Below are positions 14,242 to 58,042 of a stretch of 64,000 nucleotides of DNA, piece by piece; the first letter of the stretch is position 1, and the number at the start of each line of letters is the position of its first letter. The notes beneath the pieces were generated by a model, which was not told the origin of the DNA, did not search any database, and worked only from the letters and a program-made list of their open reading frames with translations. The translations under genes and the position numbers were made by a program. Source of the DNA: an uncultured Sphingobacteriales bacterium (GTDB lineage Bacteria; Bacteroidota; Bacteroidia; CAILMK01; CAYYUA01); assembly GCA_964542585.1 (NCBI GenBank), contig CAZIUI010000011.1:5831-69830 (forward strand), in the 5' to 3' direction.

Positions 14242-14335
14242 AGATGGGTGATGCTTAAATTAATTGGTTTTTGAGAGCTTTTCTCTTTTTAAAATTTTAA
14301 CTTTAATGTTCATTTACCAAACAGTAAATGTTCCT

Positions 14336-17300: not shown

Positions 17301-20300
17301 TTAGGGACAGTGTTAAATATTGGGATACGACCAGGATAAACAGCAATTTTACAATAGACTTCTGGGGTCAATCCAGTCGCAGGAATGCAGGAAAAGAAAC
17401 CCTTAAATGGGATTATGGTGATGGTCAAGGATTCAAGGGGCCATCCCACGATCCTGTAAATTCCTACGATACTATAGGAGAATATGACGTAAGCCTGGCG
17501 ATTAAGGACAGTTCCGGTTGCCGTGATACCATTACTAAAAAGGACTTAATTCGTGTATATGGCGTCAATGCGAGTTTTGGCAGCAAGCCGAGAGAACTAA
17601 TATGCACCCCGGATGCCCAGTTTTTTGATTCCAGCACCTTGGTTGATAGTGGCACTAGTTTTCCTGGTCATCCCAATGACACCGTGGTTAAATGGGAATG
17701 GCAATTTGGGGATGGTAAGCCTAAAAGCTTTGTTCGTAACCCTGCTCATAATTACACCACTAACGACACTTTTGACGTGAAGATGGAGGTTGAAAGTAAC
17801 CAAGGTTGTAAGGATTCAATTACCAAAGGATATACGATCCCAGGGCCTGCTCCAAGTTTTAGCATTGTTGGTGGGGATACATTAGGCTGTAAACCTCATA
17901 CTGCGTTGTTTAATAACAATTCTAAAAGTTCTACTTCCTACGTATGGGAGTTTGGAGATCCGAATAACAATGTGATCTCAACCCGTGCTGATACCAATGT
18001 AGATTTTACTTACAAAAAAGCTGGTGAATATGCCGTGTACCTTGTGGGTAGGGATAGTGTTACCAATCCTTTAACCAATACCAAGGAATTCTGCTCAGCT
18101 ACTTTCCCTGATACCACTTTACAGGACAAAAAAATTGTGAAAGTAAGAGGTCAACCTACCAGTTCCTTTACCGCTATTACCAGTTGTAATAAGCAAGTTA
18201 GCTTTCAAGAAGACGCTAAGTCAACTCCTACCTCATCCATAACTAAATACAAGTGGCAATTTGATACCCAGGGCTCCAGCACCCAAGCTGACACCAACTT
18301 TACTTTCTCAAAGCCTGGTAATTATACTGTAGACCTGATTGTCACCAACAAGGCAGGCTGTAAGGATACAGCAAGCCAGCAGGTAAGTATTCCTTTTATC
18401 CCAAATGCTAAATTTAAAGCCAAAAATGCCTGCGTTGGTCAAAGTATAAATTTCCAGGATCAATCAATGGTTAAAAAGGATTCCATCCAAAAATGGAAAT
18501 GGAAATTCGGTGATGGTGACACTAGCTCAGCTGAGAATCCCTCGCATTCTTACAGTATCGCGGGTAACTACACGGTTCAGCTAACTGTCACTTCCTTCAG
18601 CGGATGTAAGGACACTGTATCCCAAACCCTTAATATTCCAGGTAAACCCTCGGTAGCTTATACTATTAACCGAAAGTGCTCTAACCAAGATTTAAACCTT
18701 CAAAATAACACCACGAGCGATAGCGGGTCCTTAAGTTACCAATGGGAATTTGGAGATGGCACAACAGCTAGCACTGCTATGCCTAGTAAAACATACAGTA
18801 GCTCAGGGAATTATCAGGTAGAATTGGTAGCAGATGTGAAATACACCACCTTAACGTGTACGGACTCCCTTTCTAAAAACGTCACCATTGATCCCACGCC
18901 AAATTCCCAATACAGTGTAAGTAACACTTGCTTGAATAAAACTGTAAACTTCACTAATCAAAGTACTATTCCAAGTGGATCCATCAGTTCTTATCAGTGG
19001 TCATTTGATGATGGAGGTTCCAGCTCGCAAAAAAGCCCGGATTACCAGTATGCTAATGACGGGAGTTACAAACCTGAACTGATCGCAACTTCCGCAGAGG
19101 GATGTGAAGATACGGCTCAACAATCCCTGCAGGTTCACCCTGTGCCCCAAGCTAGTTTTACTGCTAATAATGCCTGTGAAAATGATACCATTAACCTGCA
19201 AAACAATACCACCCTTAAGCAGGGGACGCTAACTTATGATTGGGCTTTTGGGGATGGCACAACAAGTACCAAAACCAGCCCTGACAAAGCTTATAGCTCG
19301 GATGGCAATTATCAGATCGAGGAAATAGCCACTTCCGGCAAAGGTTGTAAGGATACTGCTAATCAATCAATTACGGTTAACCCACGTAGTAGTCCGTCTT
19401 TCAGCTTTTCTGATGATTGTGAAAAGGATACAGTGAGTTTTACCAATAATACCACAGGCCCTGGTGGGCTAAGCTATGATTGGGAATTTGGAGATGGCAG
19501 CAGCAGCACATCAGCAAACCCACAGAAAGTTTACAGTACCGATGGTAACTACCAGGTGAAGCTTATTAGTACAACACCTAGTAACTGTAAAGATAGTTTG
19601 ACCAAAACCATTGCTATATTTCCTAATCCTGATCCGGGTTACACGGTAACAAATAACTGTGTTGATGCTGCTGTCTCATTCCAAAATAACACAACAGTAG
19701 ACAGTGGAAGCCTATCTTACCAATGGCAATTTGGAGACGGTAATTCCAGTACCGTAGCTAATCCGTCTAATACCTATACCAGTTATAAGTTTTTCAACGT
19801 CTCGCTCACCGCTAATACAAATGAAGGGTGTTCAGCTGATACGACAGGTTCAATTCGGCCTTTCCCGCTTCCCACTGCAACTTATACCGTTCAGGATACT
19901 TGTGAGCAACAGCCGCATTTTTTCCAAAATAACAGCTCCATCGCAAATGGCAGTGTTAGTTATCAGTGGGATTTTGATGATGGAAGCCAGAGTACCAGTA
20001 CTAGCCCAATGCATCAATACGCTAGTCAGGGCACCTATCAACCTCAGTTGACTGCTACCAGTAATAAAGGGTGTATCGATTCTGTAACCCAATCAGTAGA
20101 GGCTTTTAATAAACCAATAGCCCAATTTGGGTTTACCAATAAATGTCAGCCTCAGGCTATCCCTTTCCGCGATCAGTCGGTAACTAGTTCCGGTAATGCT
20201 ATTCAGGCCTTTAATTGGGACTTTGGGGACGGGAACAGTAGTTCAAAGGAAAATCCCGACTATACTTACAATAAGTTTGGTACATACAATGTAACCTTAG

Positions 20301-23179
20301 TGGTAACCAATAACCGCTCCTGTAAAGACACCACCCAACAAAAAGTAAACAGCTATGCAAAACCTACTGCTGATTTCACGGCTCCAGTGGTTTGTGAGAC
20401 CCAAGCCACGCCTTTCCAGGATCAGTCGAGCATAGCAAGCGGAGGTATCACGACCTGGTCATGGGAGTTTAATGCACCTGGGGGTACATCCAGCCGCGTC
20501 AATCCTAGCTTTACCTATCCGGATGGCGGCAGTTATCAGCCCCAGCTTATTATCACAAGCAATGAAAACTGCCGGGATACGATTTCTAAGGTTGTAACAG
20601 TGAATCCGATTCCAGAGCCAGGTTTTACTGTCAATGATACCTGTTTTAACCAACCAACGTCCTTTGAAGATACAAGTAGCATTCAATCCGGTAGCATTGC
20701 TAATAGGGAATGGGTGCTAGGTGATGGGACCACTGTTAGTAACCAAACGACCTTTACGTATACTTATCCCGGTCCAAAAACCTATCAGTCCAAGCTTAAA
20801 GCCATTTCTATCAAAGGATGCATTGATTCCGTTTCTAAACCGACAAGGGTCCAATTTTTACCCCAAGCAGACTTTAGCAGCGATACCGTCTGCAGTAATA
20901 AGCCCACAACCTTTACCGATTCTTCCGCTGTTAAAAAGTCAAGTATTGTCTCATGGGAATGGAAATTTGGTGATGGTTCACAATCCAGCATTGCCAATCC
21001 ACAGCACATTTACCGAAAAGGAGGGCAATATCCTACCCGTTTAGTGGTGAGGTCATCCAAAGGCTGTTTAGATACGAACCGGCAAAATACGCAGGTTTAT
21101 TTCAAGCCGGAAGCTGGTTTTGCGGTTGATTCTATATGTTTCCCGGATACGTCATCGTTCACTGACACCAGTGTTGTAACAAATAGCTCGTTTCAGCAGT
21201 GGTCTTGGGATTTTGGGGACGGTTCGTCCGCAAACGTGCAAAACCCTGACTATGCTTATGATACCTTTGGTAGTTATGAAGTCAAGTTGGTAGCTACAAC
21301 ATTACAAGGATGTAAGGATACAGCCAGGGATACGGTTAGGGTGAACCCCAAACCTGTTTCGGATTTTGCTTTTGAGGACACCTGCCAACCCAACCCCGTT
21401 AATTTCCGGGATCAAAGTCAAGTGGACACCGGGCGTTTAGTGGCTTATAAGTGGCAATTTGGCGAAGGGGATACCAGTACCAAGCCCTCGCCTGTCCATC
21501 CTTACGATACCTTTGGCCGTTTTGAAGCTTCGCTTGCGGTTAGAACTGAAAAAAATTGCAGGGATACGGCTATTCAAACAGTGGAAGTTTTTCCAAAGCC
21601 AGTTGCAGGCTTCACGGTTGATAACGTTTGTCGTATTGATACAGCTATTTTCCAAGAGACTTCCTCAGTTGCTGGTAACAGTTCCCTGCAGGATTGGGAC
21701 TGGCAATTGGGTGACAGTACATCAGCAAATGGAGATTCACTAAGCTACACCTACGCAGTTGCAGACACTTATGATGTCGAAATGATAGTTACTACTACAG
21801 ATGGTTGTAAGGATACGGTGGTGAATCCTCTTACCATTTATCCCATGCCGCAGAGCCGGTTTATAACCAATGACTCTTTACAATGCCTGGAATCAGAAAA
21901 CTTTAGTTTTACCAATGAAACCACCATTAAGTGGGGATCCAGTAGTTACAATTGGAGGAGTTTCAGGTTGATAGACTCTTCGTTATCTGACCAGGCTACG
22001 AGTTTAGATTATCAGCGTCAATTTAGGGATACCGGAGATTATAAAGTGGAATTGAAAGCCATTTCTAACTTCAATTGTTCAACCAGAGATAGCCAGGTTG
22101 TTAAGGTTTACCCTGATCCTCAAGCAACTTTTACTGTGAACAATGGTTGTATCAATGATCCATTAAAGTTATTGGACCGCAGTCAAGTAGGAAAGGGAGT
22201 CGTTGACAGTTGGCTTTGGAAACCTGGAAATGGTAACTTAAAAATCCAACAAGATCCCCAGGCAAGCTATGATACAGGTGGTATTTATCCGATACAGCTA
22301 GTTGCAACCACTAACGCGGGCTGCGATGATACGGCTCAGCAAAACAACCGCATTTATGGTAAACCAGAGCCGGCAACCATGAGGCGGGTAACCGTGAAAG
22401 AAGATTCTTTTGCAAGAATTGAGTGGGAGCCTTCTCCTAGTCCTAATCCCGGTTTCTACGAAATTTACCGCTCTAATACATCGCCCACCACCAGTGGCTC
22501 GCCATTGGGAACTTTCCAACCGAATAATACAGTTGTACGGGATTTCAATGTAATGGTAGATTCCCAGGATTATTACTACACCCTCAATTTTGTAGATAGT
22601 TGTGGTATCCCTTACCCGTTTAACAACTTTGGCCGCACGATTCATTTGGACGTTGAGACCGATGTCCGCTTTCCAGAGTTATCTTTTAATTCTTACGAAG
22701 GATGGCCAAGGGGTGTTAAGGATTACCAGGTTCAGTGGAGTAGTAATCGTACTGTTGGTTTTGAGCCTGTGAAGGCCGTTGATACCAATGAGTTCAAGGA
22801 TAGCTTAACAAGAGGGTTTGGGAATCCGTACTGCTACCGAATTGTAGCCCGTAAGGCCGATTCGACCTCGGTGATCAGTGTCTCCAATGTAAGCTGTGTG
22901 AATTCAGATTCTAAAATTTATATCCCTGAAGCGTTTTCCCCCAATGATGATAACCACAATGACCTTTTTAGGCCTAAAGGGAGTTTTGTGTTAGATTACA
23001 ACATTAAGATCTTTAACCGTTGGGGTGAAAAGATATTCGAGAGTAATGACAGGCAAAAAGCTTGGGACGGAAAGTATAAGGGAGAAGAAGCACCAACTGG
23101 TATTTATCAATATCAAGTAATAGTACAGGGAACAGAAGATGTTATATCCAAGTCAGGGACTGTCACCCTTATCCGTTAG
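14336..23179 (+). CDS. Giant PKD-repeat cell-surface adhesin with gliding-motility-associated / T9SS type-B C-terminal domain
   Basis: ORF runs from 14264, but Met at 14336 precedes a good signal peptide (MLKSSVFGVLKEIIFWLIFIGLVIPEFCIAQ). ~28-30 repeats with PKD signature (W-x-F-G-D-G ... Y-x-V-x-L). C-terminus (KIYIPEAFSPNDDNHNDLFRPKG...KAWDGKYKGEEAPTGIYQYQV) matches the gliding motility-associated C-terminal domain of SprB/CHU-type proteins. Confidence 0.85.
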   Translation: MLKSSVFGVLKEIIFWLIFIGLVIPEFCIAQNSCTPKFTLSTKTVCSSDTLSITNQSTGSNLAYKWTFKDNNGNKIKTRSNKSPSVTFNNPGSSQLNYSVQLVITNASGCDDTLTKNFTLKPQPTAVFSMDSSRFCKSGTVNFTDASKGNGLSYQWDFGVASKTGDTAVVANPSYKYKDTGVYKPTLTVTNGQGCDDQATKKVVVGNPPVADFKVRNNCKKQSTKFTDISQTFSDSVAKWDWDFGDNSGSSLKNPNHQYSSKSTFNVSLKITLAGGCVDSTSDNVKIHSTPSASIGDTGICENNNVSFTGSKPSSASSFKWKFGDGKVESNNINPFHVYAQSGAYQPSLAVTFPDNRTCEVPTDSLEVFGNSAINATITTADTQCSKGNQVCLVDSTPASSNVTITNRTVLYGDGAKSQDSGSNVRKFCHSYSQSNNTYSVQLTVKSQSGCKASKNFNSAIFVRKPWTASFSTQYQTQCFGTPVTFTNQTGLDSSNASSFKWDFDNGETDTTRWTGFTKTYNKNGAFSPSLTVTSKYGCTRSFELSKGAENVSFNFNITASADTLCFGGKKLELSQPPIKNANFTWFYGDGDSQNQNVTGWTTTHEYPNPGQYTYKLKVSNGNCDSTSPLDTVNIIGVNPNFSIKDSFEFMCGVPDSVVFVDSALNPEQSIHYGVPNTQRIWDFGDTLAPSCTTNTAKGKNVNKNCRYSRDSVSVAHSYPKNQPDCYEATITFDDTVSGCKSSKTTEIALQKPEAGPDSSHSPPLPGAKFISDNECLGPESRKSVEVNLDSIQPQCGPENYWVMWDSTCAEKSGNFSAQWENAPVSHTYGYDDQPCESDGTRTIGLVVQNGTDSNGNLCKDTAWYTDEIQQASVDPRITSDFKPSADRCPPVNVTFSLKDSLNQDSVSSYTWKIDDDTFVRNNPSPISYKFKKHKEYEVSVKIRQFRLEDSCIATPTSRSDGFIELGVGFRGGFRAKKTRVCKGESVTLRDSVKYWDTTRINSNFTIDFWGQSSRRNAGKETLKWDYGDGQGFKGPSHDPVNSYDTIGEYDVSLAIKDSSGCRDTITKKDLIRVYGVNASFGSKPRELICTPDAQFFDSSTLVDSGTSFPGHPNDTVVKWEWQFGDGKPKSFVRNPAHNYTTNDTFDVKMEVESNQGCKDSITKGYTIPGPAPSFSIVGGDTLGCKPHTALFNNNSKSSTSYVWEFGDPNNNVISTRADTNVDFTYKKAGEYAVYLVGRDSVTNPLTNTKEFCSATFPDTTLQDKKIVKVRGQPTSSFTAITSCNKQVSFQEDAKSTPTSSITKYKWQFDTQGSSTQADTNFTFSKPGNYTVDLIVTNKAGCKDTASQQVSIPFIPNAKFKAKNACVGQSINFQDQSMVKKDSIQKWKWKFGDGDTSSAENPSHSYSIAGNYTVQLTVTSFSGCKDTVSQTLNIPGKPSVAYTINRKCSNQDLNLQNNTTSDSGSLSYQWEFGDGTTASTAMPSKTYSSSGNYQVELVADVKYTTLTCTDSLSKNVTIDPTPNSQYSVSNTCLNKTVNFTNQSTIPSGSISSYQWSFDDGGSSSQKSPDYQYANDGSYKPELIATSAEGCEDTAQQSLQVHPVPQASFTANNACENDTINLQNNTTLKQGTLTYDWAFGDGTTSTKTSPDKAYSSDGNYQIEEIATSGKGCKDTANQSITVNPRSSPSFSFSDDCEKDTVSFTNNTTGPGGLSYDWEFGDGSSSTSANPQKVYSTDGNYQVKLISTTPSNCKDSLTKTIAIFPNPDPGYTVTNNCVDAAVSFQNNTTVDSGSLSYQWQFGDGNSSTVANPSNTYTSYKFFNVSLTANTNEGCSADTTGSIRPFPLPTATYTVQDTCEQQPHFFQNNSSIANGSVSYQWDFDDGSQSTSTSPMHQYASQGTYQPQLTATSNKGCIDSVTQSVEAFNKPIAQFGFTNKCQPQAIPFRDQSVTSSGNAIQAFNWDFGDGNSSSKENPDYTYNKFGTYNVTLVVTNNRSCKDTTQQKVNSYAKPTADFTAPVVCETQATPFQDQSSIASGGITTWSWEFNAPGGTSSRVNPSFTYPDGGSYQPQLIITSNENCRDTISKVVTVNPIPEPGFTVNDTCFNQPTSFEDTSSIQSGSIANREWVLGDGTTVSNQTTFTYTYPGPKTYQSKLKAISIKGCIDSVSKPTRVQFLPQADFSSDTVCSNKPTTFTDSSAVKKSSIVSWEWKFGDGSQSSIANPQHIYRKGGQYPTRLVVRSSKGCLDTNRQNTQVYFKPEAGFAVDSICFPDTSSFTDTSVVTNSSFQQWSWDFGDGSSANVQNPDYAYDTFGSYEVKLVATTLQGCKDTARDTVRVNPKPVSDFAFEDTCQPNPVNFRDQSQVDTGRLVAYKWQFGEGDTSTKPSPVHPYDTFGRFEASLAVRTEKNCRDTAIQTVEVFPKPVAGFTVDNVCRIDTAIFQETSSVAGNSSLQDWDWQLGDSTSANGDSLSYTYAVADTYDVEMIVTTTDGCKDTVVNPLTIYPMPQSRFITNDSLQCLESENFSFTNETTIKWGSSSYNWRSFRLIDSSLSDQATSLDYQRQFRDTGDYKVELKAISNFNCSTRDSQVVKVYPDPQATFTVNNGCINDPLKLLDRSQVGKGVVDSWLWKPGNGNLKIQQDPQASYDTGGIYPIQLVATTNAGCDDTAQQNNRIYGKPEPATMRRVTVKEDSFARIEWEPSPSPNPGFYEIYRSNTSPTTSGSPLGTFQPNNTVVRDFNVMVDSQDYYYTLNFVDSCGIPYPFNNFGRTIHLDVETDVRFPELSFNSYEGWPRGVKDYQVQWSSNRTVGFEPVKAVDTNEFKDSLTRGFGNPYCYRIVARKADSTSVISVSNVSCVNSDSKIYIPEAFSPNDDNHNDLFRPKGSFVLDYNIKIFNRWGEKIFESNDRQKAWDGKYKGEEAPTGIYQYQVIVQGTEDVISKSGTVTLIR
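14400..22350 (+). repeat. Tandem coding repeats (~260-280 bp period) encoding PKD domains inside the giant adhesin gene
   Basis: Recurrent WxFGDG / NPxHxY / CxDT motifs at ~88-aa spacing throughout the protein. Confidence 0.7.
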
Positions 23180-29031: not shown

Positions 29032-29105
29032 TAGCGAGAGAGGGACTTGAACCCTCGACCTCAGCATTATGAGTGCTGCGCTCTGGCCAACTGAGCTATC
29101 TCGCC
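29032..29105 (-). tRNA. tRNA-Met (anticodon CAT)
   Basis: Reverse complement GGCGAGATAGCTCAGTTGGCCAGAGCGCAGCACTCATAATGCTGAGGTCGAGGGTTCAAGTCCCTCTCTCGCTA folds as cloverleaf: 7-bp acceptor (G1-U72 wobble), D stem GCTC/GAGC, anticodon stem CAGCA/TGCTG with loop CTCATAA, T stem GAGGG/CCCTC with TTCAAGT loop; CCA not encoded. Could alternatively be tRNA-Ile2 (lysidine) since both use CAT. Confidence 0.8.
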
Positions 29106-38900: not shown

Positions 38901-41861
38901 ATGCCTTATAAAATTATAACAAAGGTTACCCTTGGCCTTGCTCTTCTTGGATGTTGTGGTCTTTCAGTAAATGCTCAGAATGTCCAGATTCGAGATCCTG
39001 AGGTTGACTTAAAGCAAGAAGGCTTGAATAAAGTAGACCCAGCCGAACAGCAAAAACTTGCTAATCAGGCATTTTGGCAAAATTTTAAATCTGCTCATCC
39101 TACTTGGCAGGCATGGTTTAATGAAAAAACAAAACTTCCCCATAAGGCCTATGGAAAGCCCATTGATGTACAAGGGAATACGCTTAAAACTAAAGCTAAC
39201 AAAGTACTTGAAGGTGTCTTAGACGCTTTTCCTATTGAACCTGAGCAATTGAAGTTTGATAATACCCGGAGCTCACCCAATGCGGGGTTTGTTACTTTTA
39301 AGCAAACCTTTAACAAAAAGAAAGTATTAACCAGCAAGGTTAAATTAAGGTTTACCAAAAAAGGAGCCCTGACCCAATTTTCGCTTGACTACTACCCGGC
39401 TATTAGTGATTTGCCTAAGCCAAAACTGACCCCTAAAGCACTGCTTAGTGCTGCAAAAAAAGGCATTGATGGAAATGTAAAAGAGGCCAAGATTAATGGA
39501 GGCCTTCAAATCCTCCCTAACAAGGGTGATTATTATTTAGTAAGAGAAGTGACCATCAGAGGGGAAAAGCCAAGTCAAAACGAGCCTTTTGACTACCGTA
39601 CGCTAGTAGATGCTAAAAGTGGAGATATCCTCTACCGCAAAAATCGCGTTGTTGAGGCTAATTTTAATGACCTACCCTTAAAAGGAACTGTAGTAGATGA
39701 ATACCCCGGAAATGGCCAAAAGGCTGTAAACCTTCGGCATCTCTCCGTTGAAGCAAATGGCCAAACTTTTTTTACTGATAGTACTGGGGAACTATCTATT
39801 AACTTGCCTGATAGCACGCAAGCTAATATTACGCTTGAAGGAAAATTTGCCAGTGTCCAAGATCGTGGAGAGCAATCTCCTGCCTTTCAAAGAGTTTTGG
39901 ATACCAGCAGAAGCGTTCAAAAGATATCGTTTGACAGTGCAGCTCGTCTCGATCAAATTTCCGCCTACCATAATACCAATACCATTCATGATTACATGAA
40001 AGGATTAATGCCGAATTTTACAGGCCTTGACAATCCCATTGAGGTAAATACAGGCCTTGAGCAAGGGCAGGGTTGTAATGCGGTGTACAATCCCAGAGAG
40101 AATTCCATTAATTTTTTTGAAGACAACGACCAATGCCCAAGTTTTGCCAAAGTGGCGGATGTAGTTTACCACGAATATGGTCACGCTATCAACAGTGTTT
40201 TCTATGAAGAAAATGGATCGACTTTCAGAAACGGAGCGTTAGGGGAAGGTTACGCTGATGTTTGGGGTATGCTGCCCCCGGATGATCCGGTAATTGGAAA
40301 AGGAATTACCAATGGTCCGGGAAACAGGGTAATTCGCCGGTATGATAGGAATCCTAAGGTTTATCCCCAGGATATAACCGGCGAAGTTCACGATGATGGG
40401 GAAATCATAGCAGGCGCTTTCTGGGATATGAAGAAAAACCTGGATTCGCTGGATCAAATGGCCCAGCTCTTTGCGGCTACTTATCAAGCCCTGCCGAATG
40501 CCATGGAAGGGAATGAAGGACAGCTTTACAGGGATATTTTATTAGAGGTCTTAACGGCTAATGATGATGATAACGATTTGTCAAATGGCACCCCGGACCA
40601 GGACGCAATTACCTCAGCTTTTGCTAGGCACGGTATTACCCTTCTTGCCGGTATTGAACTGGATCATACGCCCCAAAAGTTGCGGAAACCAAACACAACT
40701 TCCGATTTTACGGCTTCTATTGATGGTCAGTTGCTTACGCCTATTGGCGGTATTCGACTTAAGTACAAGTTGAATGATGATCAACAATGGCAAACCAATG
40801 ATTTGCAAAAACAAGGTAGTCAGTCCGTTTATAAGGCCTCTATTTCCGGGGCTGATACCGGCGATGTGATGACCTATTATTTTCAATTACTTGATCAACA
40901 GGGAAATGTATCAGCAACGCTCCCGGAAGGTGCAAACGAAAATACCATTGAAAATTTGCCCTATTACACCTTATACGGCTTTGATGTGATTACCCATGAT
41001 TCCCTCAATAGTAGTCAAGGCTGGTCCATTAGTGGCGATGCCCGGTCAGGCATGTGGACTTTTGCAGAGCCGGTGCCTTCTTTCATAGACGGTGAGCCTG
41101 AAACGCCGGAGAACAGGGTGCAGCCAGCCTCCGATCACACTGGTGGCCCTGTAAACAAATGTGCTGTAACGGAGAATGCCCCCAGCCGGAATGTTCAACA
41201 GGGTTTTGCTGATATAGATAATGGAGAGACGATTTTAATTTCATCGTATTACAATGTCGATACCCTTCAATCCCCGGTTATTGGTTTTCACCGGTGGTTT
41301 AGTAATGCTACTGGTACGAATCCAAAGAACGACCCATTTGAGGTATACATTCAAAGCCGTCAGGGAAGTACCTGGACGGAGGTCAGTAATACTTTTCAAC
41401 CCGATAGGGAATGGCGTATGCGCTTAATTGATGTCAATTCAAGGTTAAACCAACAAGTTGAGGCTGTTAGGTTGCGATTTATTGCTTCCGATCGTGTTGA
41501 TAATTCAGAGCAGCAGGCAGGTCAGAGTATTACGGAAGCTGCTGTGGATGATGTGGTCGTTTATGAGCGTCTGAGAAAAGGCTTCCGCCCAGTGGGCCAG
41601 TCTGACCTTTCTACTAGAGGGGCTTCAATGACCGTATTCCCCAACCCTACGAATGGTATTGTTAAGATTAACCGGCCGGAACAGAAAACAGCGGTTAAGG
41701 CTCAGGTGATCAATGCGCATGGACAAGTTATGGAAAGAATGCCATTAGGAGGGGGTACGACCATTGTTGACTTTTCCGCAATAGCACCAAGTAAAGGAGT
41801 TTACATCCTTAAATGGCGGGAACAAGGTCAAGTACACCATCAGCGGATCCTGTACCGTTAA
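38901..41861 (+). CDS. Secreted zinc metalloprotease (HExxH) with T9SS type-A C-terminal domain
   Basis: Signal peptide; VYHEYGHAINSV (HExxH) and downstream EGYADVWG; C-terminal MTVFPNPTNGIVKI...GVYILKW matches Por secretion CTD. Confidence 0.65.
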   Translation: MPYKIITKVTLGLALLGCCGLSVNAQNVQIRDPEVDLKQEGLNKVDPAEQQKLANQAFWQNFKSAHPTWQAWFNEKTKLPHKAYGKPIDVQGNTLKTKANKVLEGVLDAFPIEPEQLKFDNTRSSPNAGFVTFKQTFNKKKVLTSKVKLRFTKKGALTQFSLDYYPAISDLPKPKLTPKALLSAAKKGIDGNVKEAKINGGLQILPNKGDYYLVREVTIRGEKPSQNEPFDYRTLVDAKSGDILYRKNRVVEANFNDLPLKGTVVDEYPGNGQKAVNLRHLSVEANGQTFFTDSTGELSINLPDSTQANITLEGKFASVQDRGEQSPAFQRVLDTSRSVQKISFDSAARLDQISAYHNTNTIHDYMKGLMPNFTGLDNPIEVNTGLEQGQGCNAVYNPRENSINFFEDNDQCPSFAKVADVVYHEYGHAINSVFYEENGSTFRNGALGEGYADVWGMLPPDDPVIGKGITNGPGNRVIRRYDRNPKVYPQDITGEVHDDGEIIAGAFWDMKKNLDSLDQMAQLFAATYQALPNAMEGNEGQLYRDILLEVLTANDDDNDLSNGTPDQDAITSAFARHGITLLAGIELDHTPQKLRKPNTTSDFTASIDGQLLTPIGGIRLKYKLNDDQQWQTNDLQKQGSQSVYKASISGADTGDVMTYYFQLLDQQGNVSATLPEGANENTIENLPYYTLYGFDVITHDSLNSSQGWSISGDARSGMWTFAEPVPSFIDGEPETPENRVQPASDHTGGPVNKCAVTENAPSRNVQQGFADIDNGETILISSYYNVDTLQSPVIGFHRWFSNATGTNPKNDPFEVYIQSRQGSTWTEVSNTFQPDREWRMRLIDVNSRLNQQVEAVRLRFIASDRVDNSEQQAGQSITEAAVDDVVVYERLRKGFRPVGQSDLSTRGASMTVFPNPTNGIVKINRPEQKTAVKAQVINAHGQVMERMPLGGGTTIVDFSAIAPSKGVYILKWREQGQVHHQRILYR

Positions 41862-50789: not shown

Positions 50790-51392
50790 ATGGCAATGAA
50801 TTCGCCCTTTGAAAGAACAATTCGGCGGCATCATGTAAAATGGTTGACCTACGGATTGTTCTTACCACTGGTAATCGTTTCAGGTGGCCTTCTGTTCTAT
50901 ACCTGTTGTGGTAGTTTAAAGACAGTATTGAGTAATTGGCCGTCCAGCATTGTAGAGCAATTAGCTTGGGTGGCAGGTTTCTTTTTTGCTTATGTGTTGG
51001 CAATAGGACTTCATGAGCTTATACATGGGCTTACGTGGATTGCCTTAATTCCCTCAACATGGAAAGTGCTTAGGTTCGGCTTTTTCAAAAACAGCAAAAC
51101 CCCTTACTGCCATTTAAAAATTTCTGTTAACCGGAATGTTTATCTCAGCGGGGTGGTTATGCCTGGCCTATTGTTGGGCGTAGTCCCTGTTTTAATAGGC
51201 CTTTGGCATGGTAATATATTTTTATGGCTTTTAGGGCTTTTTTTAACCTATGCCTCTTTGAATGATGCTGTTATGGCAGGCTATCTGCTACGTGAAAAAT
51301 CTGGTAGTTTAATTAAAGACCAACCCAATGCTTTGGGCTATTGGGTTTACCCGTCAGATAGTAGTTTTTCCAACAACAATGAAAGAGCTTAG
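50790..51392 (+). CDS. Membrane protein with HExxH motif (DUF3267-like putative zincin)
   Basis: 4-5 TM segments; HELIHGLTW motif at membrane interface. 4-bp overlap (convergent) with first lipoprotein paralog. Confidence 0.45.
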   Translation: MAMNSPFERTIRRHHVKWLTYGLFLPLVIVSGGLLFYTCCGSLKTVLSNWPSSIVEQLAWVAGFFFAYVLAIGLHELIHGLTWIALIPSTWKVLRFGFFKNSKTPYCHLKISVNRNVYLSGVVMPGLLLGVVPVLIGLWHGNIFLWLLGLFLTYASLNDAVMAGYLLREKSGSLIKDQPNALGYWVYPSDSSFSNNNERA

Positions 51393-51970
51393 GGTTTTAC
51401 AGCTTGGAAAGTGCCGTTTAAAACTATGGTTTGGGTACCATCTCCTAATTTAAGGGCCTTTAATTCGCCCTTTATTCGTTTATCTTCATAGGAGTTAATA
51501 ACTAACGTTCCCTCTGCTCTGGAAGTTGTCTGGGTCTCGTAAATACTGCCGCCACTGGTTTCTAAGATAGCGGCTACTGCTTTATCAGGATTGGTTTCTA
51601 AGGTTAGTTTTTTGACTAAAAAAGCTTTCGGGGTTAAGCTGGAAGCCTTGTCCAAAATGTATAAGGTCATTTTAACAGAATCCTTTGCCGCTTTACCTCC
51701 GGTTATTCTAATATTTGTTTGAAATGTCAAAGGACCCGGAACTTGATTTGAAGAATCTTCTAAAACCGTGAAAGTGGGTGAAAATGAGAAAACGTCATTG
51801 ATGGCACCCCTAATGCGAATATTTGCCTTACCTTTTGGGCCGGAATCACCACTGTTGTTGGTGTCGCAACTGCCCAGTCCGATACCCACTGCTAAGATTA
51901 ACAGGAGGATGAATAGGTTACCTTCCCCAAACCGCAGTTGGCTGTTTTTTATCAAGCTTAATCTAACCAT
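51389..51970 (-). CDS. Surface lipoprotein paralog P1 (single-module member of the array family)
   Basis: Lipobox IGLGSC then DTNNSGDSG; C-terminal signature ...INSYEDKRIKGELKALKL...TIVLNGTFQAVKP shared with five upstream paralogs. Start overlaps stop of the symporter gene by 8 bp. Confidence 0.6.
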   Translation of the reverse strand: MVRLSLIKNSQLRFGEGNLFILLLILAVGIGLGSCDTNNSGDSGPKGKANIRIRGAINDVFSFSPTFTVLEDSSNQVPGPLTFQTNIRITGGKAAKDSVKMTLYILDKASSLTPKAFLVKKLTLETNPDKAVAAILETSGGSIYETQTTSRAEGTLVINSYEDKRIKGELKALKLGDGTQTIVLNGTFQAVKP

Positions 51971-53774
51971 GGGAACGGTACACTTTCCTTAATGCCCAAA
52001 GCCCCACAATAAAAAAGGCTATTAAAGTGATTCCGATTATATTTTGGCTAAGTAAAAGATACCCAATGCCAAACATCAGGGCAAATGAAGAGGCCGCAGT
52101 CAGGCCCCATTTAAGCAACATTGCTTGAAGTGTACTGCTTTGTCTTTCTTGCGGAAGTAAATGCTGCGGCCAGAAACCAAATGGTTGAACCTTTTGAGCA
52201 AAGGCTTTTAACACCTCCTTATTTACCGGAGGCGTGAGCAAAGTAACTGTTACCGAAACCAATACGCTTCCAAGAGCACTAAAAAGCAGTAAGTATTCCT
52301 GTTTTTGTTGTGGGAAAAAGGCCAGGAAACCCAAGGCCATGATCATAGAAGTGCTAATGCCACTTATTTCAGTCCATGCATTGGCCCGCCACCATATCCA
52401 GCGTAAAATCTGGGGAAGGCCCATGCCGGCTCCCAGCGCAAAAAAGAACTTCCAGGCATCTCCTATGGATTCGATCTGCGTGGCAATTAGTACTGATAAA
52501 AGCGCCAGCCCTATCACCGTTAGCCGGCTCCGATTTACAAGTTGCTTGTTGGTCGCATTTGGGTTGATCTCCTGTTTGTAAATATCGTTGATCAAATAAC
52601 TCGCTCCCCAGTTGATGTGGGTGTCCACTGTACTCATGAAGGCTGCCACTAAGCTGGTGAACACCAAACCTAAAAGCCCCGGTGGTAGCAAAGCTTTCAT
52701 TAACAATGGGTAGCCCATTTCCCGATCTTGACCTACTTGGGCACCCGAGGGTAAATTGGCAGCAGGGTCGCCAAGCGGGAATATGACCAAGCAAACAAGC
52801 CCAATAAGCAACCAAGGCCACGTACGAAGTCCGAAATGGGCAAACATGAACCAAAAAGCCCCCTTTTCCGCATCTTTTTCTGACCGGGCCGTATTGATTC
52901 TTTGTGCTAAGTAACCCGACCCATCTGAAAAATACTGCCCCCACCAAAGTACACCTATGTAGATGAGGAAAATATCAAAAGGGAACAGGTTCCCATCCCA
53001 GGAGGGAAAGAATTGAAGTATTTCGCTGCTTTTGTCAGGGTAAATGTTGTGGAGTTGATCAACCAACCCGTTTAGACCACCCACATGGTTCACTGCTATC
53101 ACCGTGAAAATCACCGATGCGCTGATAGCCAATAAAAACTGCAATAGATCAGTGAGAATAACGCCACGAATGCCACCAATACTGCTGTAAACCATCACAA
53201 AAGCAAAAAGGACCAGGACTGTAAGGGTATTGTTAAGCTCGCCTAATAGCAAAAAATCCGGCCATTGCGTTTGGATGCTCGCAAACGTAGGTTCTCCTAA
53301 AAGCTGCGGCCACTTGATAAAAGGGGTGGTGATTTTGTTCATGGCTTTAAACACCCAGCCCATGACCACACCATTGATGATGATGCTTAAATAACCCGCT
53401 TTGAATAAACGTAGGAAACGCGCTGAAGCTCCGTCATAGCGGATGCCGATAAGCTCAACATCCGTCAGCACTTGGCTTGCGCTCCACTTGCGGGCAAAGA
53501 AGACCGTCATGGTAGCATAGGTGAGAATACTGCCCCACCATAGCCAATTACCGGCCAGTCCGCTGTTAGCAACAATACCCGTGATAGCTAGCGGGGTATC
53601 AGCTGCGAACGTGGTGGCCACCATGGAGGTGCCCAGCCACCACCAGGGTAGGGAGCGGCCGGCTAAGAAATAGGAATCCAGGTTGCGGCTGGCTAGCTTC
53701 CTAACCAGAAGCCCAACAACAAAAACAAAGGCAATGTAACCCCCAAGGATGCCCCAATCCAATGCTGTAAACAT
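51963..53774 (-). CDS. Sodium:solute symporter family (SSS) transporter
   Basis: 603 aa, ~13-14 TM helices, N-terminal GILGGYIAFVFVVGLLV...SLPWWWLGTSMVATTFAADTPLAITG typical of SSF/SGLT family. Confidence 0.8.
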   Translation of the reverse strand: MFTALDWGILGGYIAFVFVVGLLVRKLASRNLDSYFLAGRSLPWWWLGTSMVATTFAADTPLAITGIVANSGLAGNWLWWGSILTYATMTVFFARKWSASQVLTDVELIGIRYDGASARFLRLFKAGYLSIIINGVVMGWVFKAMNKITTPFIKWPQLLGEPTFASIQTQWPDFLLLGELNNTLTVLVLFAFVMVYSSIGGIRGVILTDLLQFLLAISASVIFTVIAVNHVGGLNGLVDQLHNIYPDKSSEILQFFPSWDGNLFPFDIFLIYIGVLWWGQYFSDGSGYLAQRINTARSEKDAEKGAFWFMFAHFGLRTWPWLLIGLVCLVIFPLGDPAANLPSGAQVGQDREMGYPLLMKALLPPGLLGLVFTSLVAAFMSTVDTHINWGASYLINDIYKQEINPNATNKQLVNRSRLTVIGLALLSVLIATQIESIGDAWKFFFALGAGMGLPQILRWIWWRANAWTEISGISTSMIMALGFLAFFPQQKQEYLLLFSALGSVLVSVTVTLLTPPVNKEVLKAFAQKVQPFGFWPQHLLPQERQSSTLQAMLLKWGLTAASSFALMFGIGYLLLSQNIIGITLIAFFIVGLWALRKVYRSHG

Positions 53775-53911
53775 GGAGCTACGGCTTTAATGAAACGGAG
53801 CTTGTAAAATTAGGCACAGCCTTCTGTTAAAGCACAATAAAAAAGCAGCCCATCAGTTTCCAAGCTGAAAGGCCGCCAGACTAGTAAAGACAACGGAGAA
53901 CTGCCGGGTTT

Positions 53912-54877
53912 CTACTTGTAGTATGTAAAGTCACCGTTCAGCGTTATGTTCTTAGAACTGCTATCAGCTTTTAGTTTGTAATTCGTAATCTGCCCATGAA
54001 GTTTTTCCTGGTTGTTGATATTGATTTCTACGGTGCCGTGGCCGGATGGTAACCAGTTCGTATTAGCTTTTTTGATGGATATATAAGCAAATTCTTCAGG
54101 AGTATTTTGACCTAAGGCACTTGCTGAGTAAGTACCGGTACCTAAGTTATCCGGTGTGTAAAAAGTAATCCCAAGGATATAATGGAGTTGGCCAGAATTA
54201 CTTTCCGATAGAATTAAAGATAATCTGCCTTGAGGTTTATCAGGACCTGAGTTTGGTTTTTTGGTTAATTGGGAAGTATATACCGTGTTCAGATTTTTTT
54301 GAATATAACCTGATAACTTGATTGCTGCATTGGAAAGTTTTTTAGGAGCACTAAACTGCCCATTGAGTTTAATGGTCTTTCCGGATTGGGGATTGGTTAA
54401 CGCAACATTTGTGATGGTTCCTTTTATCCGCGAATCGTTATTTTTGTTAAGATCAATAGTTCCGGAGGTACCGTTTGAAACGTTATCATTGCCATTATGC
54501 CGGATCCCAATAATAGCCGCTTCATCCGGGATACTGTCAGTTTCTATTCCTGGACGAATTACTTCTATTGAGCCATTTTTCAAAGGAGGTTTCCGAGCGA
54601 ATAACAATATAGCTACGCTATCACCAGCCTTATTTTCCCATCCCAGGGTCAGAAGATATCCAACATCTTCGGCCCGTTTTTTAACACTTGGTTTTATATT
54701 GGCTTTGATCTGATCATTAACGGAACCAGACAGGGTGATTTTATTCTCAGCATTCCCGCTACTGTTATCATCATCACAGCTAGCAAGCCCCAACAGCAGA
54801 AAAAGGGCCAAACGTACAATAAGGCCATTTGGTAAGGACCGAAGTAGAAACATAGGGCTCAGTTTAGGGGTAATCAA
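53912..54877 (-). CDS. Surface lipoprotein paralog P2 (two-module)
   Basis: Lipobox LGLASC + DDDNSSG; two modules ending ...IDLNKNNDSRIKGTITNVALT...TIKLNGQFSAPKK and ...VEININNQEKLHGQITNYKLK...NITLNGDFTYYK. Confidence 0.6.
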   Translation of the reverse strand: MITPKLSPMFLLRSLPNGLIVRLALFLLLGLASCDDDNSSGNAENKITLSGSVNDQIKANIKPSVKKRAEDVGYLLTLGWENKAGDSVAILLFARKPPLKNGSIEVIRPGIETDSIPDEAAIIGIRHNGNDNVSNGTSGTIDLNKNNDSRIKGTITNVALTNPQSGKTIKLNGQFSAPKKLSNAAIKLSGYIQKNLNTVYTSQLTKKPNSGPDKPQGRLSLILSESNSGQLHYILGITFYTPDNLGTGTYSASALGQNTPEEFAYISIKKANTNWLPSGHGTVEININNQEKLHGQITNYKLKADSSSKNITLNGDFTYYK

Positions 54878-55079: not shown

Positions 55080-56069
55080 TTATTTAGGAACAGCAAAAGC
55101 CCCGTTAGCCGTCACCGTTTTATTATCGCCCTCTAATTTGATACTGTTAATTGTGCCTTCAATTCGGTTTTCGTTGTTTTTAGTGACCTCAACATTCCCG
55201 GATTGATCCACCGTTTTATAGTCAGTCCCTTCATAGGTAACATTTAAGTTAACGAACTGATCCGGCACATTGGAAGGATCCTGAACATCTTCATTGTTAA
55301 ATGCTTCCACCGTATCAGTCTCATTTCCCTCAAGTCCGGTAATGCCAATAGAAACGGTATTGGTGATGTTATCCTCACCTTGCCATGTAATGTTAAGGGC
55401 GCTGCCACCTAACTGGAAATTCGGTTGGCTCCTGGCTTTGATGTCCTCTTGCTCATCACCCGTCAGGTTGACAAAGTTGGTAGAGTCGCTTTCATTCTCG
55501 TTTTCATTGGCATTGCCTTTCAGGGCGTTAAACTCGGCATTGATGGTAACCTGCGCATCATCATCCGGGTTGGGATTATTCAGCGTAACATCATCAATGG
55601 TACCGGCTACCCGGTTGTCGTTATTTGTGCTAATGGTCACACTACCGGACTCGCCACTGAAATTCCAGGATGTTCCTTCGTACACTATGGATACGGTGGA
55701 AAACTGACTTGACGCATTGTTCAGGCTTTCCAGAATATCATAAGTACCAGTTTCGATCTTATTACCGGCATTAGTTACCTCGGCTTCTACCTGATTGTCC
55801 TGCGCGTCTTTCCAGGATACAGCGAGGGTCGTTATCGGGTTATCGTTTTCCCCGTCTTCCTGTTCTATTTCCACTTCGATGTCCTCATCCGGCTCGATCT
55901 CAGCCTCCACAGCACCTGTAAGGGTTCCTGAGGCCTCATTCTTCTGGAGTTCCGGATCATCAGGACTGCTGCTGCCATCATCGTCATCATTACAGCTGGA
56001 TAGGCTAACAAGAATAGGAGCCAGGGCAATAATCCCAAAGGATTTCATAAAAATCTTCCAGGTTTTCAT
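55080..56069 (-). CDS. Surface lipoprotein paralog P3 (two-module, highly acidic)
   Basis: Lipobox VSLSSC + NDDDDGSSSPDD; modules ending ...VTISTNNDNRVAGTIDDVTLN...VTINAEFNALKG and ...VEVTKNNENRIEGTINSIKLE...TVTANGAFAVPK. Confidence 0.6.
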   Translation of the reverse strand: MKTWKIFMKSFGIIALAPILVSLSSCNDDDDGSSSPDDPELQKNEASGTLTGAVEAEIEPDEDIEVEIEQEDGENDNPITTLAVSWKDAQDNQVEAEVTNAGNKIETGTYDILESLNNASSQFSTVSIVYEGTSWNFSGESGSVTISTNNDNRVAGTIDDVTLNNPNPDDDAQVTINAEFNALKGNANENENESDSTNFVNLTGDEQEDIKARSQPNFQLGGSALNITWQGEDNITNTVSIGITGLEGNETDTVEAFNNEDVQDPSNVPDQFVNLNVTYEGTDYKTVDQSGNVEVTKNNENRIEGTINSIKLEGDNKTVTANGAFAVPK

Positions 56070-56312
56070 AAGGTTCTTGCTTTAAAGTTTTCACTGATTC
56101 AACTACAAATATAGGGGCTTAAGAGCGCCTAATAGTTGCACTAAGCAAGCTCTCTTTTCTACTGTTCAATCTGCAAGCTATCGCATTGCTCAGCATAGTA
56201 CCCATTAAAAAGGCCCAATCAATTCAAGTTGACTGGGCCTTTTACTAAGTAGACAGTTCACCAGAATTTTTAATCCTCCGTTTATACTTAAATTCAAAGA
56301 GACTTAACCTAT

Positions 56313-57287
56313 CTAATCTTTAGCAAGGTCAAAACCACCGTTGAGGGTTGCTGACAAATCTCTGCGGGAGAGCTGGACGTCATTGAAAGTTCCGGTAATG
56401 CGGTCTTCCCTATTGGTAGAAATCCTGATATCACCACCTTCAGAGCTCCATTGGTCTCCATCAAAATTAACTGTTACAGAGGCTTCCTTGTCTATCAACT
56501 CAGCATTAAACGTTCCTGTTCTACCTATGGAGAATAGGCTAATTGAAACAAAATTACCATCGTTTCCAGTGAAGCTAATACTGGTCACACCGGGTCCCAT
56601 TTCTTCTATTTCAGTCACATCAAAGGACGAAATATTCGTAATGGTTCCTTCAACATCACCGGTCAGCTCCGCTTCAGCCTCGTTGGGGTTGCTGGGATCA
56701 GGGTCAGGATCAGGATCACCCCCCTCAGTTTTATTCTTAGAAGCATTGAACTCACCGTTAACTGTAACAGAGCCGTTACCTTGTGGTGGAACGAGTTTCA
56801 TGTTGCTAATAGTGCCGGCTATGGTGCTGTCATTGTTCATGGTGATGTTAATGGCTCCTTTAACGAGCTCATTTGCAGTGTCAGCCTTAGAAAGCCACAA
56901 TCCCTGACCTTTCAGCTGAACAGTCATTACCCCTTTTGATCCTTGTAGATTGTCTTGGGAGAGAGCAATCGGATTAGCAGGCGTATAGGTTCCGGTTTTA
57001 CCTACCTGCGTAAGGCCAATGGCTACCTGATTGTCATTGGTATTGGTCCAACTGATAGAGGTCTTACCGTCTTCTTCCTGTACAATGATAGGGCCCTCAT
57101 TAGCGATTGTTATGGATTTATCCCCACTTAGTTCTAATTTACCCTCGCCTTTAGCGATTTCTGGTTCCGCTAATCCGCCACCTCCGTTATCGTCATCATC
57201 ACAACTAGTTAAACTGCCAAAGGCAAGCATGGCCGAAACTCCTAAGCAAAGTCTAAACAATACCGTGGTAATAGTCATGTAAGTCAC
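56313..57287 (-). CDS. Surface lipoprotein paralog P4 (two-module)
   Basis: Lipobox GSLTSC + DDDDNGGGG; modules ending ...INITMNNDSTIAGTISNMKLV...SVTVNGEFNASKN and ...IRISTNREDRITGTFNDVQLS...SATLNGGFDLAKD; poly-DP linker (GGDPDPDPDPSNP). Confidence 0.6.
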   Translation of the reverse strand: MTYMTITTVLFRLCLGVSAMLAFGSLTSCDDDDNGGGGLAEPEIAKGEGKLELSGDKSITIANEGPIIVQEEDGKTSISWTNTNDNQVAIGLTQVGKTGTYTPANPIALSQDNLQGSKGVMTVQLKGQGLWLSKADTANELVKGAINITMNNDSTIAGTISNMKLVPPQGNGSVTVNGEFNASKNKTEGGDPDPDPDPSNPNEAEAELTGDVEGTITNISSFDVTEIEEMGPGVTSISFTGNDGNFVSISLFSIGRTGTFNAELIDKEASVTVNFDGDQWSSEGGDIRISTNREDRITGTFNDVQLSRRDLSATLNGGFDLAKD

Positions 57288-57460: not shown

Positions 57461-58042
57461 TTACTTTTGGGCATTAAAAGCACCATTGACCGTAATCGTT
57501 GAGTCATCCGAGCTTGAATTTTTGCTAAGGGTTACATCGTTAATAGTACCTGCGACTTTATTGCTATTATTAGTGGAAAATTCAACTGACCCATTACTTC
57601 CATTAATCCATAAGGTTCCATTCAAGGTAACCTCTATCTGAGAAGCTTTTTCAGGTAATCCCCCACTTGTTGCATCTTCGATAGATAAAGGCTGATAGGT
57701 ACCGGTTTCAGCACCTCCGCCTCCGGATTCAGATATTATAATGGTTGCGGTATTTTTATTTTGATCCGACCAGTAAATTGTTACTGATGACCGCGTTTCC
57801 CCACTACTTACAGTTCCAGCAGTGTCCCTCACATTTGGATCAGTGGTTGAGGCAATGGTATCACTCGCATCCCCACTCAAATAAAGTCTGGCACTATTTT
57901 CAGATATATTAGGATCTTCTATATTACCACCTCCGTTACCATTACCCCCATCATCATCATCGCTACAGCTGGAAAGGCCAACGGGGGATAGGGCTAAAGC
58001 TGCCATTATGAGGGTGTTGATCATGAGTTTTTTTACGTTCAT
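57461..58042 (-). CDS. Surface lipoprotein paralog P5 (single-module)
   Basis: Lipobox VGLSSC + SDDDDGGNGNGGGN; module ...VEFSTNNSNKVAGTINDVTLS...TITVNGAFNAQK. Confidence 0.6.
   Translation of the reverse strand: MNVKKLMINTLIMAALALSPVGLSSCSDDDDGGNGNGGGNIEDPNISENSARLYLSGDASDTIASTTDPNVRDTAGTVSSGETRSSVTIYWSDQNKNTATIIISESGGGGAETGTYQPLSIEDATSGGLPEKASQIEVTLNGTLWINGSNGSVEFSTNNSNKVAGTINDVTLSKNSSSDDSTITVNGAFNAQK

Follow-up and report, generated by a model that had tools for sequence, protein, structure and literature searches.

A probable lineage-specific operon joining a sodium:solute symporter gene to one member of a family of LpqH-like lipoproteins in an uncultured Sphingobacteriales bacterium

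Our study concerns a stretch of 64,000 nucleotides from an uncultured Sphingobacteriales bacterium (contig CAZIUI010000011.1, positions 5,831 to 69,830; hereafter the window), in which a gene of the sodium:solute symporter (SSS) family lies on the minus strand among the genes of six related lipoproteins, five of them upstream of it (LpA, LpB, LpC, LpD and P2) and one directly downstream (P1). The reading that we favor, and consider rather probable, makes SSS and P1 the two genes of a bicistronic operon peculiar to this lineage, next to which a tandem array of LpqH-like lipoprotein genes is evolving fast, with no evidence that this family feeds the transporter. The pairing would be an ordinary operon arrangement, and a functional link between its two products is possible. 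Our literature search found no paper describing a pair made of an SSS transporter and a lipoprotein. The features at the center of the analysis are the following.

51963 to 53774, minus strand: SSS gene, 603 amino acids, first gene of the putative two-gene unit (open reading frame list and match to Pfam PF00474)
51389 to 51970, minus strand: P1, a 193-amino-acid lipoprotein of the local LpqH-like beta-barrel family, in which it diverges most; second gene of the putative unit
51963 to 51970, minus strand: stop/start overlap ATGGTTAG, 8 bp, which places the SSS TAG within the first codons of P1 (read from the sequence)

The SSS reading frame ends in R-S-H-G followed by the stop codon TAG at 51965-51963, and the ATG of P1 occupies 51970-51968; read along the minus strand, the sequence around them is ...cgttccc ATG GTT AG attaagc.... 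Stop/start overlaps of 4-8 nt are a common feature of operons and no statistical oddity. The ATG at 51970 is likely the true start of P1, because two public gene calls yield the identical 193-residue product (P0121), the nearest orthologue, P0125, has an N-terminal extension homologous to this one (LSLIKNSQL against LDSIKKMQL), and the alternative start, TTG at 51955, still lies just 7 nt past the SSS stop. The two genes have the marks of a translationally coupled pair, namely a common strand, an overlap or a spacer of a few nucleotides, and no intervening terminator: the terminator scan placed no hairpin between the SSS gene and P1, and the hairpins at 52108-52090 and 52080-52062 lie within the SSS coding sequence and have weak T tails. 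The junction is conserved in a narrow clade. Its spacing is -8 nt in the window, -4 nt (ATGA) in the related locus L014 and +1 nt (TGAtATG) in L001-L004, L015 and L005, and a tight junction of -4 or +1 nt was found in four related lineages, in which the SSS protein is 71-77% and P1 38-45% identical to the window's; every relative with SSS and P1 on one contig has it. The original prediction had claimed an SSS-family transporter gene, a stop codon overlapping the P1 start by 8 bp with the ATG at 51970, and the co-transcription and translational coupling of the two genes. The first of these is confirmed by a PF00474 score well over its cutoff and the second by the exact coordinates on the minus strand, while the third gains sequence-level support from the conserved tight junction and from the lack of a hairpin between the genes in our scan. 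The SSS gene and P1 are probably co-transcribed, and their translational coupling is probable.

The five upstream lipoprotein genes and the signals predicted around them, together with the gene on the opposite strand that bounds the unit at its 3' side, are listed below.

59338 to 59345, minus strand: predicted -7 box of LpA, TAAGTTTG, exact match to TAnnTTTG
58426 to 59310, minus strand: LpA, two-domain lipoprotein paralogue, first of the array
57461 to 58042, minus strand: LpB, single-domain lipoprotein paralogue, nearest to the family consensus
56313 to 57287, minus strand: LpC, two-domain lipoprotein paralogue
56106 to 56113, minus strand: predicted -7 box of LpD, exact match to TAnnTTTG
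55080 to 56069, minus strand: LpD, two-domain lipoprotein paralogue
53912 to 54877, minus strand: P2, two-domain lipoprotein paralogue, putatively a separate transcription unit
53836 to 53867, minus strand: terminator-like hairpin CAGCTTGGAAACTGATGGGCTG followed by the T-run CTTTTTTATT, upstream of SSS and predicted to close the P2 transcript (terminator scan)
53805 to 53812, minus strand: variant -7 box TAATTTTA, promoter-like, 38 nt before the SSS ATG and one base off TAnnTTTG, with a putative promoter function
50790 to 51392, plus strand: membrane-protein gene of the DUF3267 family (putative zincin peptidase), convergent, its stop overlapping the P1 stop by 4 bp; putative 3' boundary of the SSS-P1 unit

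On the minus strand, these seven genes follow one another in the order LpA, LpB, LpC, LpD, P2, SSS, P1. The -7 consensus of Bacteroidota promoters is TAnnTTTG; LpA, LpB and LpD each have an exact copy 35-44 nt ahead of the start, and LpC and SSS have a variant with one mismatch. Because the motif is not enriched across the window (58 matches against 69 expected on both strands, 128 kb), its repeated placement at 35-44 nt is informative, and by our own rough estimate an exact box within a 20-nt window in three of six cases is far above chance. All five genes have a hairpin on their 3' side; a T-run follows those of LpA (a strong hairpin), LpB, LpC and P2 and is not clear for LpD. The spacer between P2 and SSS measures 137 bp and holds a hairpin with its T-run and then TAATTTTA; a strong hairpin with T-run before SSS is kept in L001, L013, L014 and L015, and a TAATTT(T/C)AC box is shared, in corresponding positions, by the window, L013 and L014. 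Since a hairpin with T-run, conserved in these four relatives, precedes SSS, we read the array as a set of monocistronic genes and SSS-P1 as the sole bicistronic unit. The original prediction had the SSS gene embedded in the lipoprotein array and the whole array linked to the transporter. The embedding holds for gene order and not for transcription, where the spacer with its terminator-like hairpin would separate P2 from SSS; the link to the whole array is not supported, given the hairpins 3' of the array genes, their own -7 boxes and the conserved hairpin before SSS.

From these elements, we infer the following course of expression. RNA polymerase would most likely initiate at a promoter of the Bacteroidota type, a short way past the terminator of P2, transcribe SSS and then P1, and stop against the DUF3267 gene that faces them. 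Ribosomes that complete the SSS frame would terminate inside the first three codons of P1, and, because SSS translation ends there, P1 would probably be translated by termination-reinitiation, a mode that fits the little use that Bacteroidota make of Shine-Dalgarno sites. P1 would in this manner be expressed from the transporter's promoter as a lineage-specific operon arrangement.

The six lipoproteins belong to one family. Pairwise BLAST joins all of them, with P1 as the outlier at 21-25% identity; its match to P2 reaches 25% identity (E about 1e-8), and its matches to LpA, LpB and LpD are weaker. Ten copies of one domain of about 150 residues align across the six proteins and share the conserved end G-T-[IV]-x-[IV]...G-x-[IF]-x-x-[VI]-x-L...[TV]-[LV]-N-G-x-F-x-A-x-K. 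An hmmsearch with the family profile matched the six genes (10 domains) and nothing else in the 64 kb; the P1 score (E 8.9e-46) is partly circular, since the profile was built from 12 sequences that include P1 and all ten window domains, and the pairwise BLAST is the independent check. All six proteins carry a lipobox by a pattern match to [LVIM][ASTG][GAS]C (MSS|C, LSS|C, LTS|C, LSS|C, LAS|C and LGS|C, the last being that of P1). For P2, the mechanical open reading frame starts at TTG 54877, and a public call of 313 residues (P0127) starts eight codons downstream at ATG 54853, which may be the true start.

Library scans found no Pfam or NCBIfam model that covers this family. Lenient thresholds gave isolated sub-threshold touches to DUF6252 (E 0.004) and to Myco_19_kDa, PF05481 (E 0.039; one of 27 family members). 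A word-indexed homologue search returned only P1 when queried with P1 and six proteins when queried with the family alignment, and the size of the family became apparent only from an exhaustive profile search, which gave 66 clusters at E<=1e-3 among 1.84 billion representative proteins. The members that we examined are lipoproteins with the same acidic N-terminus and about 165-230 residues per single domain. The predicted structures of P1 and LpB are all-beta barrels, the P1 model having moderate confidence (predicted local distance difference test, pLDDT, 67), and the best structural match of the family is LpqH, the mycobacterial 19-kDa lipoprotein (PDB 4xin, 7fds). LpqH differs in belonging to another phylum with another cell envelope, the sequence identity is 10-12%, and the match to the Myco_19_kDa model stays under the Pfam threshold, which leaves the family outside PF05481. 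P1, LpA-LpD and P2 appear to be members of a small, unannotated family of LpqH-like beta-barrel lipoproteins, and this family looks lineage-restricted, expanded and reshuffled in tandem beside the SSS gene.

The export signal of Bacteroidota lipoproteins has been defined experimentally as at least two acidic residues that come after a polar or basic one, just past the cysteine (about +2 to +5), with examples such as SDDDD in B. fragilis, SDDFE in F. johnsoniae, and K-(D/E)2 (PMC5080379). LpA (CSDDD), LpB (CSDDDD), LpC (CDDDD), LpD (CNDDDD) and P2 (CDDD, mature N-terminus CDDDNSS) all have such a signal. The mature N-terminus of the window P1, C-D-T-N-N-S-G-D, and that of the L001 orthologue (CSDNGS) do not conform to it, and the P1 orthologues of L005 (CSDD) and L014 (CDDD) do so minimally. 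Because the window P1 is without an acidic run, while the other five carry C-[S/N/D]-D-D-D, it appears to be the copy least likely to be surface-exposed, and a periplasmic role is possible. P1 had originally been called a predicted surface lipoprotein; its lipobox LGS|C bears out the lipoprotein, and the missing acidic signal speaks against the surface.

Contigs whose SSS protein is 71-81% identical to the window's are syntenic with it, with genes for CcmF, NadE, an outer membrane protein, GldB, Band_7, DUF3267, P1, SSS, the lipoproteins, PagL, enoyl-CoA hydratase and SIS. The sole named genome among these syntenic relatives is L015, a metagenome-assembled genome (MAG) of an uncultured Sphingobacteriales bacterium. 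Identity to the window amounts to 58-88% for the housekeeping neighbors, 72-81% for SSS, 62-71% for LpD and 38-46% for P1, figures by which P1 appears to evolve fast. Five array genes precede SSS in the window, whereas L001 and L015 have three; the gene that immediately precedes SSS in L001, L013 and L015 is the one to which LpD is 62-71% identical. P2 appears to have been acquired recently in the window's lineage, because it has no close orthologue in L001 or L015, where the LpD orthologue directly precedes SSS. The array thus seems to be in flux among close relatives.

In one lineage, SSS and P1 could not be seen side by side. L013, which has the closest SSS (81%), shows no P1 start in the 219 bp after the SSS stop (3554-3772), and L010 and L011, which have the closest P1 (46%), show no SSS end in the sequence before it, 502 bp in all (L011 1-502; L010 1-157). 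The 502 bp of L011 are AT-rich and filled with stop codons, with a G+C content of 38% against 47.5% for the rest of the contig. An overlap between L013 and L011 was looked for to close the gap, and none was found. If these contigs represent one organism, SSS and P1 appear to be separated there by at least about 700 bp. Three contigs break between the two genes in this lineage, and a 9-nt inverted match, ATGCCCAAT, was noticed by eye at two contig ends; a repeat or a mobile insertion between SSS and P1 is possible.

The transporter itself is of a kind found far beyond this clade. The SSS protein, of which an identical copy (P0001) is present in the searched collection, matches the Pfam family SSF, PF00474, with E 1.9e-38 and 132.9 bits against a cutoff of 22.8. 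It scores 154 bits with the stricter NCBIfam superfamily model TIGR00813, under the cutoff of 184, and is far under the cutoffs of all the substrate-specific NCBIfam models (PutP, 86.6 against 515.5; PanF, 67.6 against 328; VC_2705, 47.4 against 320.8; MctC, 34.1 against 670). Its closest solved relative by HMMER is vSGLT of Vibrio parahaemolyticus (PDB 2xq2/3dh4; TC 2.A.21), with E 2.8e-30 for 2xq2 over about 450 residues. A-A-F-M-S-T of the window SSS aligns there with A-A-I-V-S-S, and its serine pair, in the helix equivalent to transmembrane helix 8 of vSGLT, we take from the vSGLT and PutP literature to be the Na+ site; AAFMST(V/A)DTH is invariant in 12 SSS orthologues. The vSGLT residues Q69 and E88, presumably galactose ligands, are replaced by T and W in the window SSS, and because of these replacements the sugar site is not conserved; we rejected a vSGLT-like galactose site on this alignment.

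The SSS orthologous group is collinear over about 600 residues at 48-58% identity and extends over roughly ten phyla, with the invariant blocks SDGSGY(L/Y)AQR, DREM(G/A)YP and AAFMST(V/A)DTH. Its members were found in Bacteroidia, Calditrichota, Leptospira and other spirochaetes, Elusimicrobiota, Gemmatimonadota, Desulfobacterota-like MAGs, Polyangiaceae, Pseudoxanthomonas and Nitrospinota. The co-occurrence of the two families was assessed by running the lipoprotein profile against the six-frame open reading frames of 76 SSS loci from named genomes, up to 10 kb on each side. A lipoprotein of the family lay within this distance of SSS in a single locus, L015, which belongs to the same clade as the window; the pairing is absent from the other 75. 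The SSS contexts of L006-L009, which were inspected individually, are unrelated to the window's, and alignment with the orthologues revealed no clade-specific insertion or deletion in the SSS proteins of the lipoprotein-linked clade. Since orthologues occur with no such lipoprotein nearby and no insertion or deletion sets the clade's SSS apart, the transporter appears not to need a lipoprotein partner, and the pairing would be a local invention. Most simply, the SSS protein would be a self-sufficient Na+-coupled symporter of about 600 residues, belonging to a widely conserved, uncharacterized orthologous group. The original prediction had named the conservation of the gene neighborhood in relatives as a check, and the outcome is divided: SSS-P1 is tight within a narrow clade, and 75 of the 76 named-genome SSS loci have no member of the lipoprotein family.

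The neighbors of SSS orthologues, picked by hand on the same strand after greedy longest-frame picking was dropped for its antisense artifacts in high-GC genomes, give a low-confidence hint at the substrate. In at least four Gemmatimonadota loci (L038, L045, L060 and L071, around 11850), the SSS gene shares 4 nt at its stop with a Gfo/Idh/MocA oxidoreductase gene. Two unrelated MAGs have a gene that fuses an S6PP-type phosphatase (N-terminal) to a GT20 synthase (C-terminal), placed 31 nt upstream of SSS in L028 (1635-3905) and 22 nt downstream of it in L072 (11802-14063); this is the architecture of the glucosylglycerol-phosphate phosphatase/synthase GgpPS (PMC10873239). A GH15/trehalase-like gene follows a 36%-identical SSS homologue in L088 (11893-13680), and in Pseudoxanthomonas, as in one Nitrospinota MAG, SSS is flanked by genes for Na+/H+ or Mrp antiporters. 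These neighbors hint, with low confidence, at a glycoside, a sugar or a compatible solute as the substrate, and a small solute of this sort may, with similarly low confidence, have no obvious need for surface capture. The window also contains a fusion of GT20 with Trehalose_PPase (10945-13167, minus strand), a bifunctional trehalose-6-phosphate synthase/phosphatase, so that trehalose is probably among the compatible solutes that the organism makes; since this gene is about 39 kb away from SSS, the two are not positionally linked.

A functional tie between the lipoproteins and the transporter can be conceived in several forms, and two kinds of known partner systems offer themselves for comparison. 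The original prediction had the family bind the transporter's substrate at the cell surface, as SusE/F-like proteins do for SusCD. SusE and SusF resemble the window family in being Bacteroidota lipoproteins with an acidic signal past the lipidated cysteine, clustered genes and often tandem domains. They differ in their immunoglobulin-like and carbohydrate-binding-module beta-sandwich domains, as opposed to an LpqH-like closed barrel, and the neighbor here is an inner-membrane symporter that is present without these lipoproteins in other phyla. Neither a SusC/TonB-dependent receptor nor a SusD model match was found among the neighbors and the ten other large open reading frames of the window that were scanned; because of this the SusE/F analogy has no basis, and a SusCD system was rejected. 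For capture of the substrate outside the cell by the surface-exposed family, with delivery to the inner-membrane SSS, there would also have to be a bridge from the surface to the periplasm, and none of the cluster's genes was found to encode an outer-membrane transporter that could provide it. The predicted terminator between P2 and SSS and the apparently separate transcription of the array genes count against it, as do the 75 of 76 orthologous SSS loci from other species that have no such lipoprotein nearby and the missing export signal of the coupled copy, P1, in both the window and L001. We know of no solute-binding role for LpqH, the best structural match, and of no link between LpqH and transporters. 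The number and order of the array copies vary among close relatives, more in the manner of a variable surface-coat family than of transport components. We therefore hold surface capture to be very improbable, and the original proposal of it is not supported, in view of the apparently separate transcription of the array, the unaccompanied SSS loci and the missing signal in P1.

A more restricted proposal is that P1 alone serves SSS, as a periplasm-facing, lipid-anchored accessory or binding subunit, which would make a clade-specific, binding-protein-assisted SSS transporter. The stop/start junction has stayed tight and conserved while the P1 sequence drifted, the window P1 has no surface-export signal and may stay in the periplasm, and the P1 orthologues are marked by common motifs (PGPxxFxT, DS, LxD and GT) distinct from those of the array copies. 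The nearest models are the TRAP, TTT and TAXI-GltS systems, in which the gene of a secondary transporter is likewise co-transcribed with that of an extracytoplasmic, sometimes lipid-anchored protein; to our knowledge, this type is the only one in which the pairing of a secondary transporter with an extracytoplasmic protein is functional. Their binding proteins, however, are two-lobed Venus-flytrap proteins, obligatory and co-occurring with the transporter across taxa, whereas P1 and LpB are all-beta barrels, the pairing is found in one clade, and co-occurrence reaches one in 76 loci. That new binding-protein-dependent secondary transporters are still emerging is exemplified by TAXI-GltS (10.1101/2024.11.27.625746). 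Against such a role stand the fold of P1, a beta-barrel in a model of pLDDT 67, and the apparent functioning of the SSS group without this partner in about ten phyla, with no distinguishing insertion or deletion in the clade's SSS. The P1 proteins of L005 and L014 carry DD or DDD past the cysteine, and the location would not be consistently periplasmic; the SSS/P1 pair, moreover, is apparently split in the nearest lineage. We regard an accessory subunit as a very unlikely role for P1. Still less credence goes to a bolder version, in which P1 is a periplasm-facing, lipid-anchored beta-barrel that is docked on SSS and binds its substrate or regulates it, and the surface-exported paralogues are ligand binders that raise the local substrate concentration.

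The opposite possibility is that there is no coupling at all, P1 being expressed from a promoter inside the 3' end of SSS or translated from the downstream TTG, and the overlap being incidental packing. The TTG lies 7 nt after the SSS stop, and in the L010/L011 lineage P1 must have a promoter of its own, because at least 502 bp of AT-rich, apparently non-coding DNA lie upstream of it. Neither TAnnTTTG nor TAnnTTTn occurs in the last 60 nt of the SSS gene, however, and the -4 and +1 nt junctions of the relatives are too tight for a promoter to fit outside the SSS coding sequence. The homology of the N-terminal extension from the ATG with P0125 and the use of the ATG by independent gene calls also argue against a downstream start, and we consider this explanation unlikely.

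The bicistronic operon without a demonstrated feeding role, which we prefer, has to be set against several points that weigh on the other side. The junction has stayed tight while P1 lost 55-60% of its residues, which can be read as selection for co-expression and would fit a functional tie. The relatives are all syntenic over about 20 kb; the conservation may be mere inheritance, and function is not thereby disproved. The promoter and the terminators are predictions from sequence, and the apparent split of SSS and P1 in L013 and L010/L011 relies on unjoined contigs from different samples. Finally, the contexts of the family elsewhere are thin: one outside locus, L012, is legible, and its contig ends 58 bp after the gene, whose product, P0126, is encoded after rsmG-like and glycosyltransferase genes and not after SSS. 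Scans of metagenome contigs with two alignments, one of them of the P1 subfamily, gave pattern matches, none of which was confirmed as a locus.

The locus is surrounded by genes for PagL-like, enoyl-CoA hydratase, SIS, DUF3267, Band_7, GldB, outer-membrane-protein beta-barrel, NadE and CcmF proteins. The DUF3267 gene adjoins P1 in every relative and evolves fast, at 35-44% identity to the relatives against 58-88% for the housekeeping neighbors. Between the PagL-like gene and LpA lies an open reading frame of 90 codons (59976-60248, plus strand), whose product is 69% identical to that of an open reading frame at the equivalent place in L001 (5104-5379); our searches of it gave no Pfam match and no signal peptide, and the product may be a small conserved protein of the cytoplasm that could perhaps regulate the array. 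Elsewhere in the window, a giant open reading frame of 2971 residues (14264-23179, plus strand) combines about 26 PKD repeats with a ChitinaseA_N-like stretch and a type IX secretion signal (CHU_C), and Por_Secre_tail sorting domains occur in two further large open reading frames (808-2871 and 38901-41861). Another, of 1476 residues (3509-7939, minus strand), has no Pfam match at E<=0.01. The sole Rfam match in the window is one tRNA gene (29032-29105, minus strand).

Our analysis defines a small, previously unmodeled family of LpqH-like beta-barrel lipoproteins in uncultured Sphingobacteriales-like Bacteroidota, which form a fast-changing tandem array with predicted surface-export signals. 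It also draws attention to a very widely conserved, uncharacterized SSS group, whose GgpPS-like, GH15-like and Gfo/Idh/MocA neighbors are a testable lead to the uptake of glycosides or compatible solutes. If the pairing of SSS and P1 were functional, it would constitute a new uptake architecture, an SSS symporter with an extracytoplasmic lipoprotein partner, and would provide the first functional handle on an unannotated lipoprotein family; a P1 docked on SSS would, if real, make this transporter the first binding-protein-assisted member of the sodium:solute symporter family.

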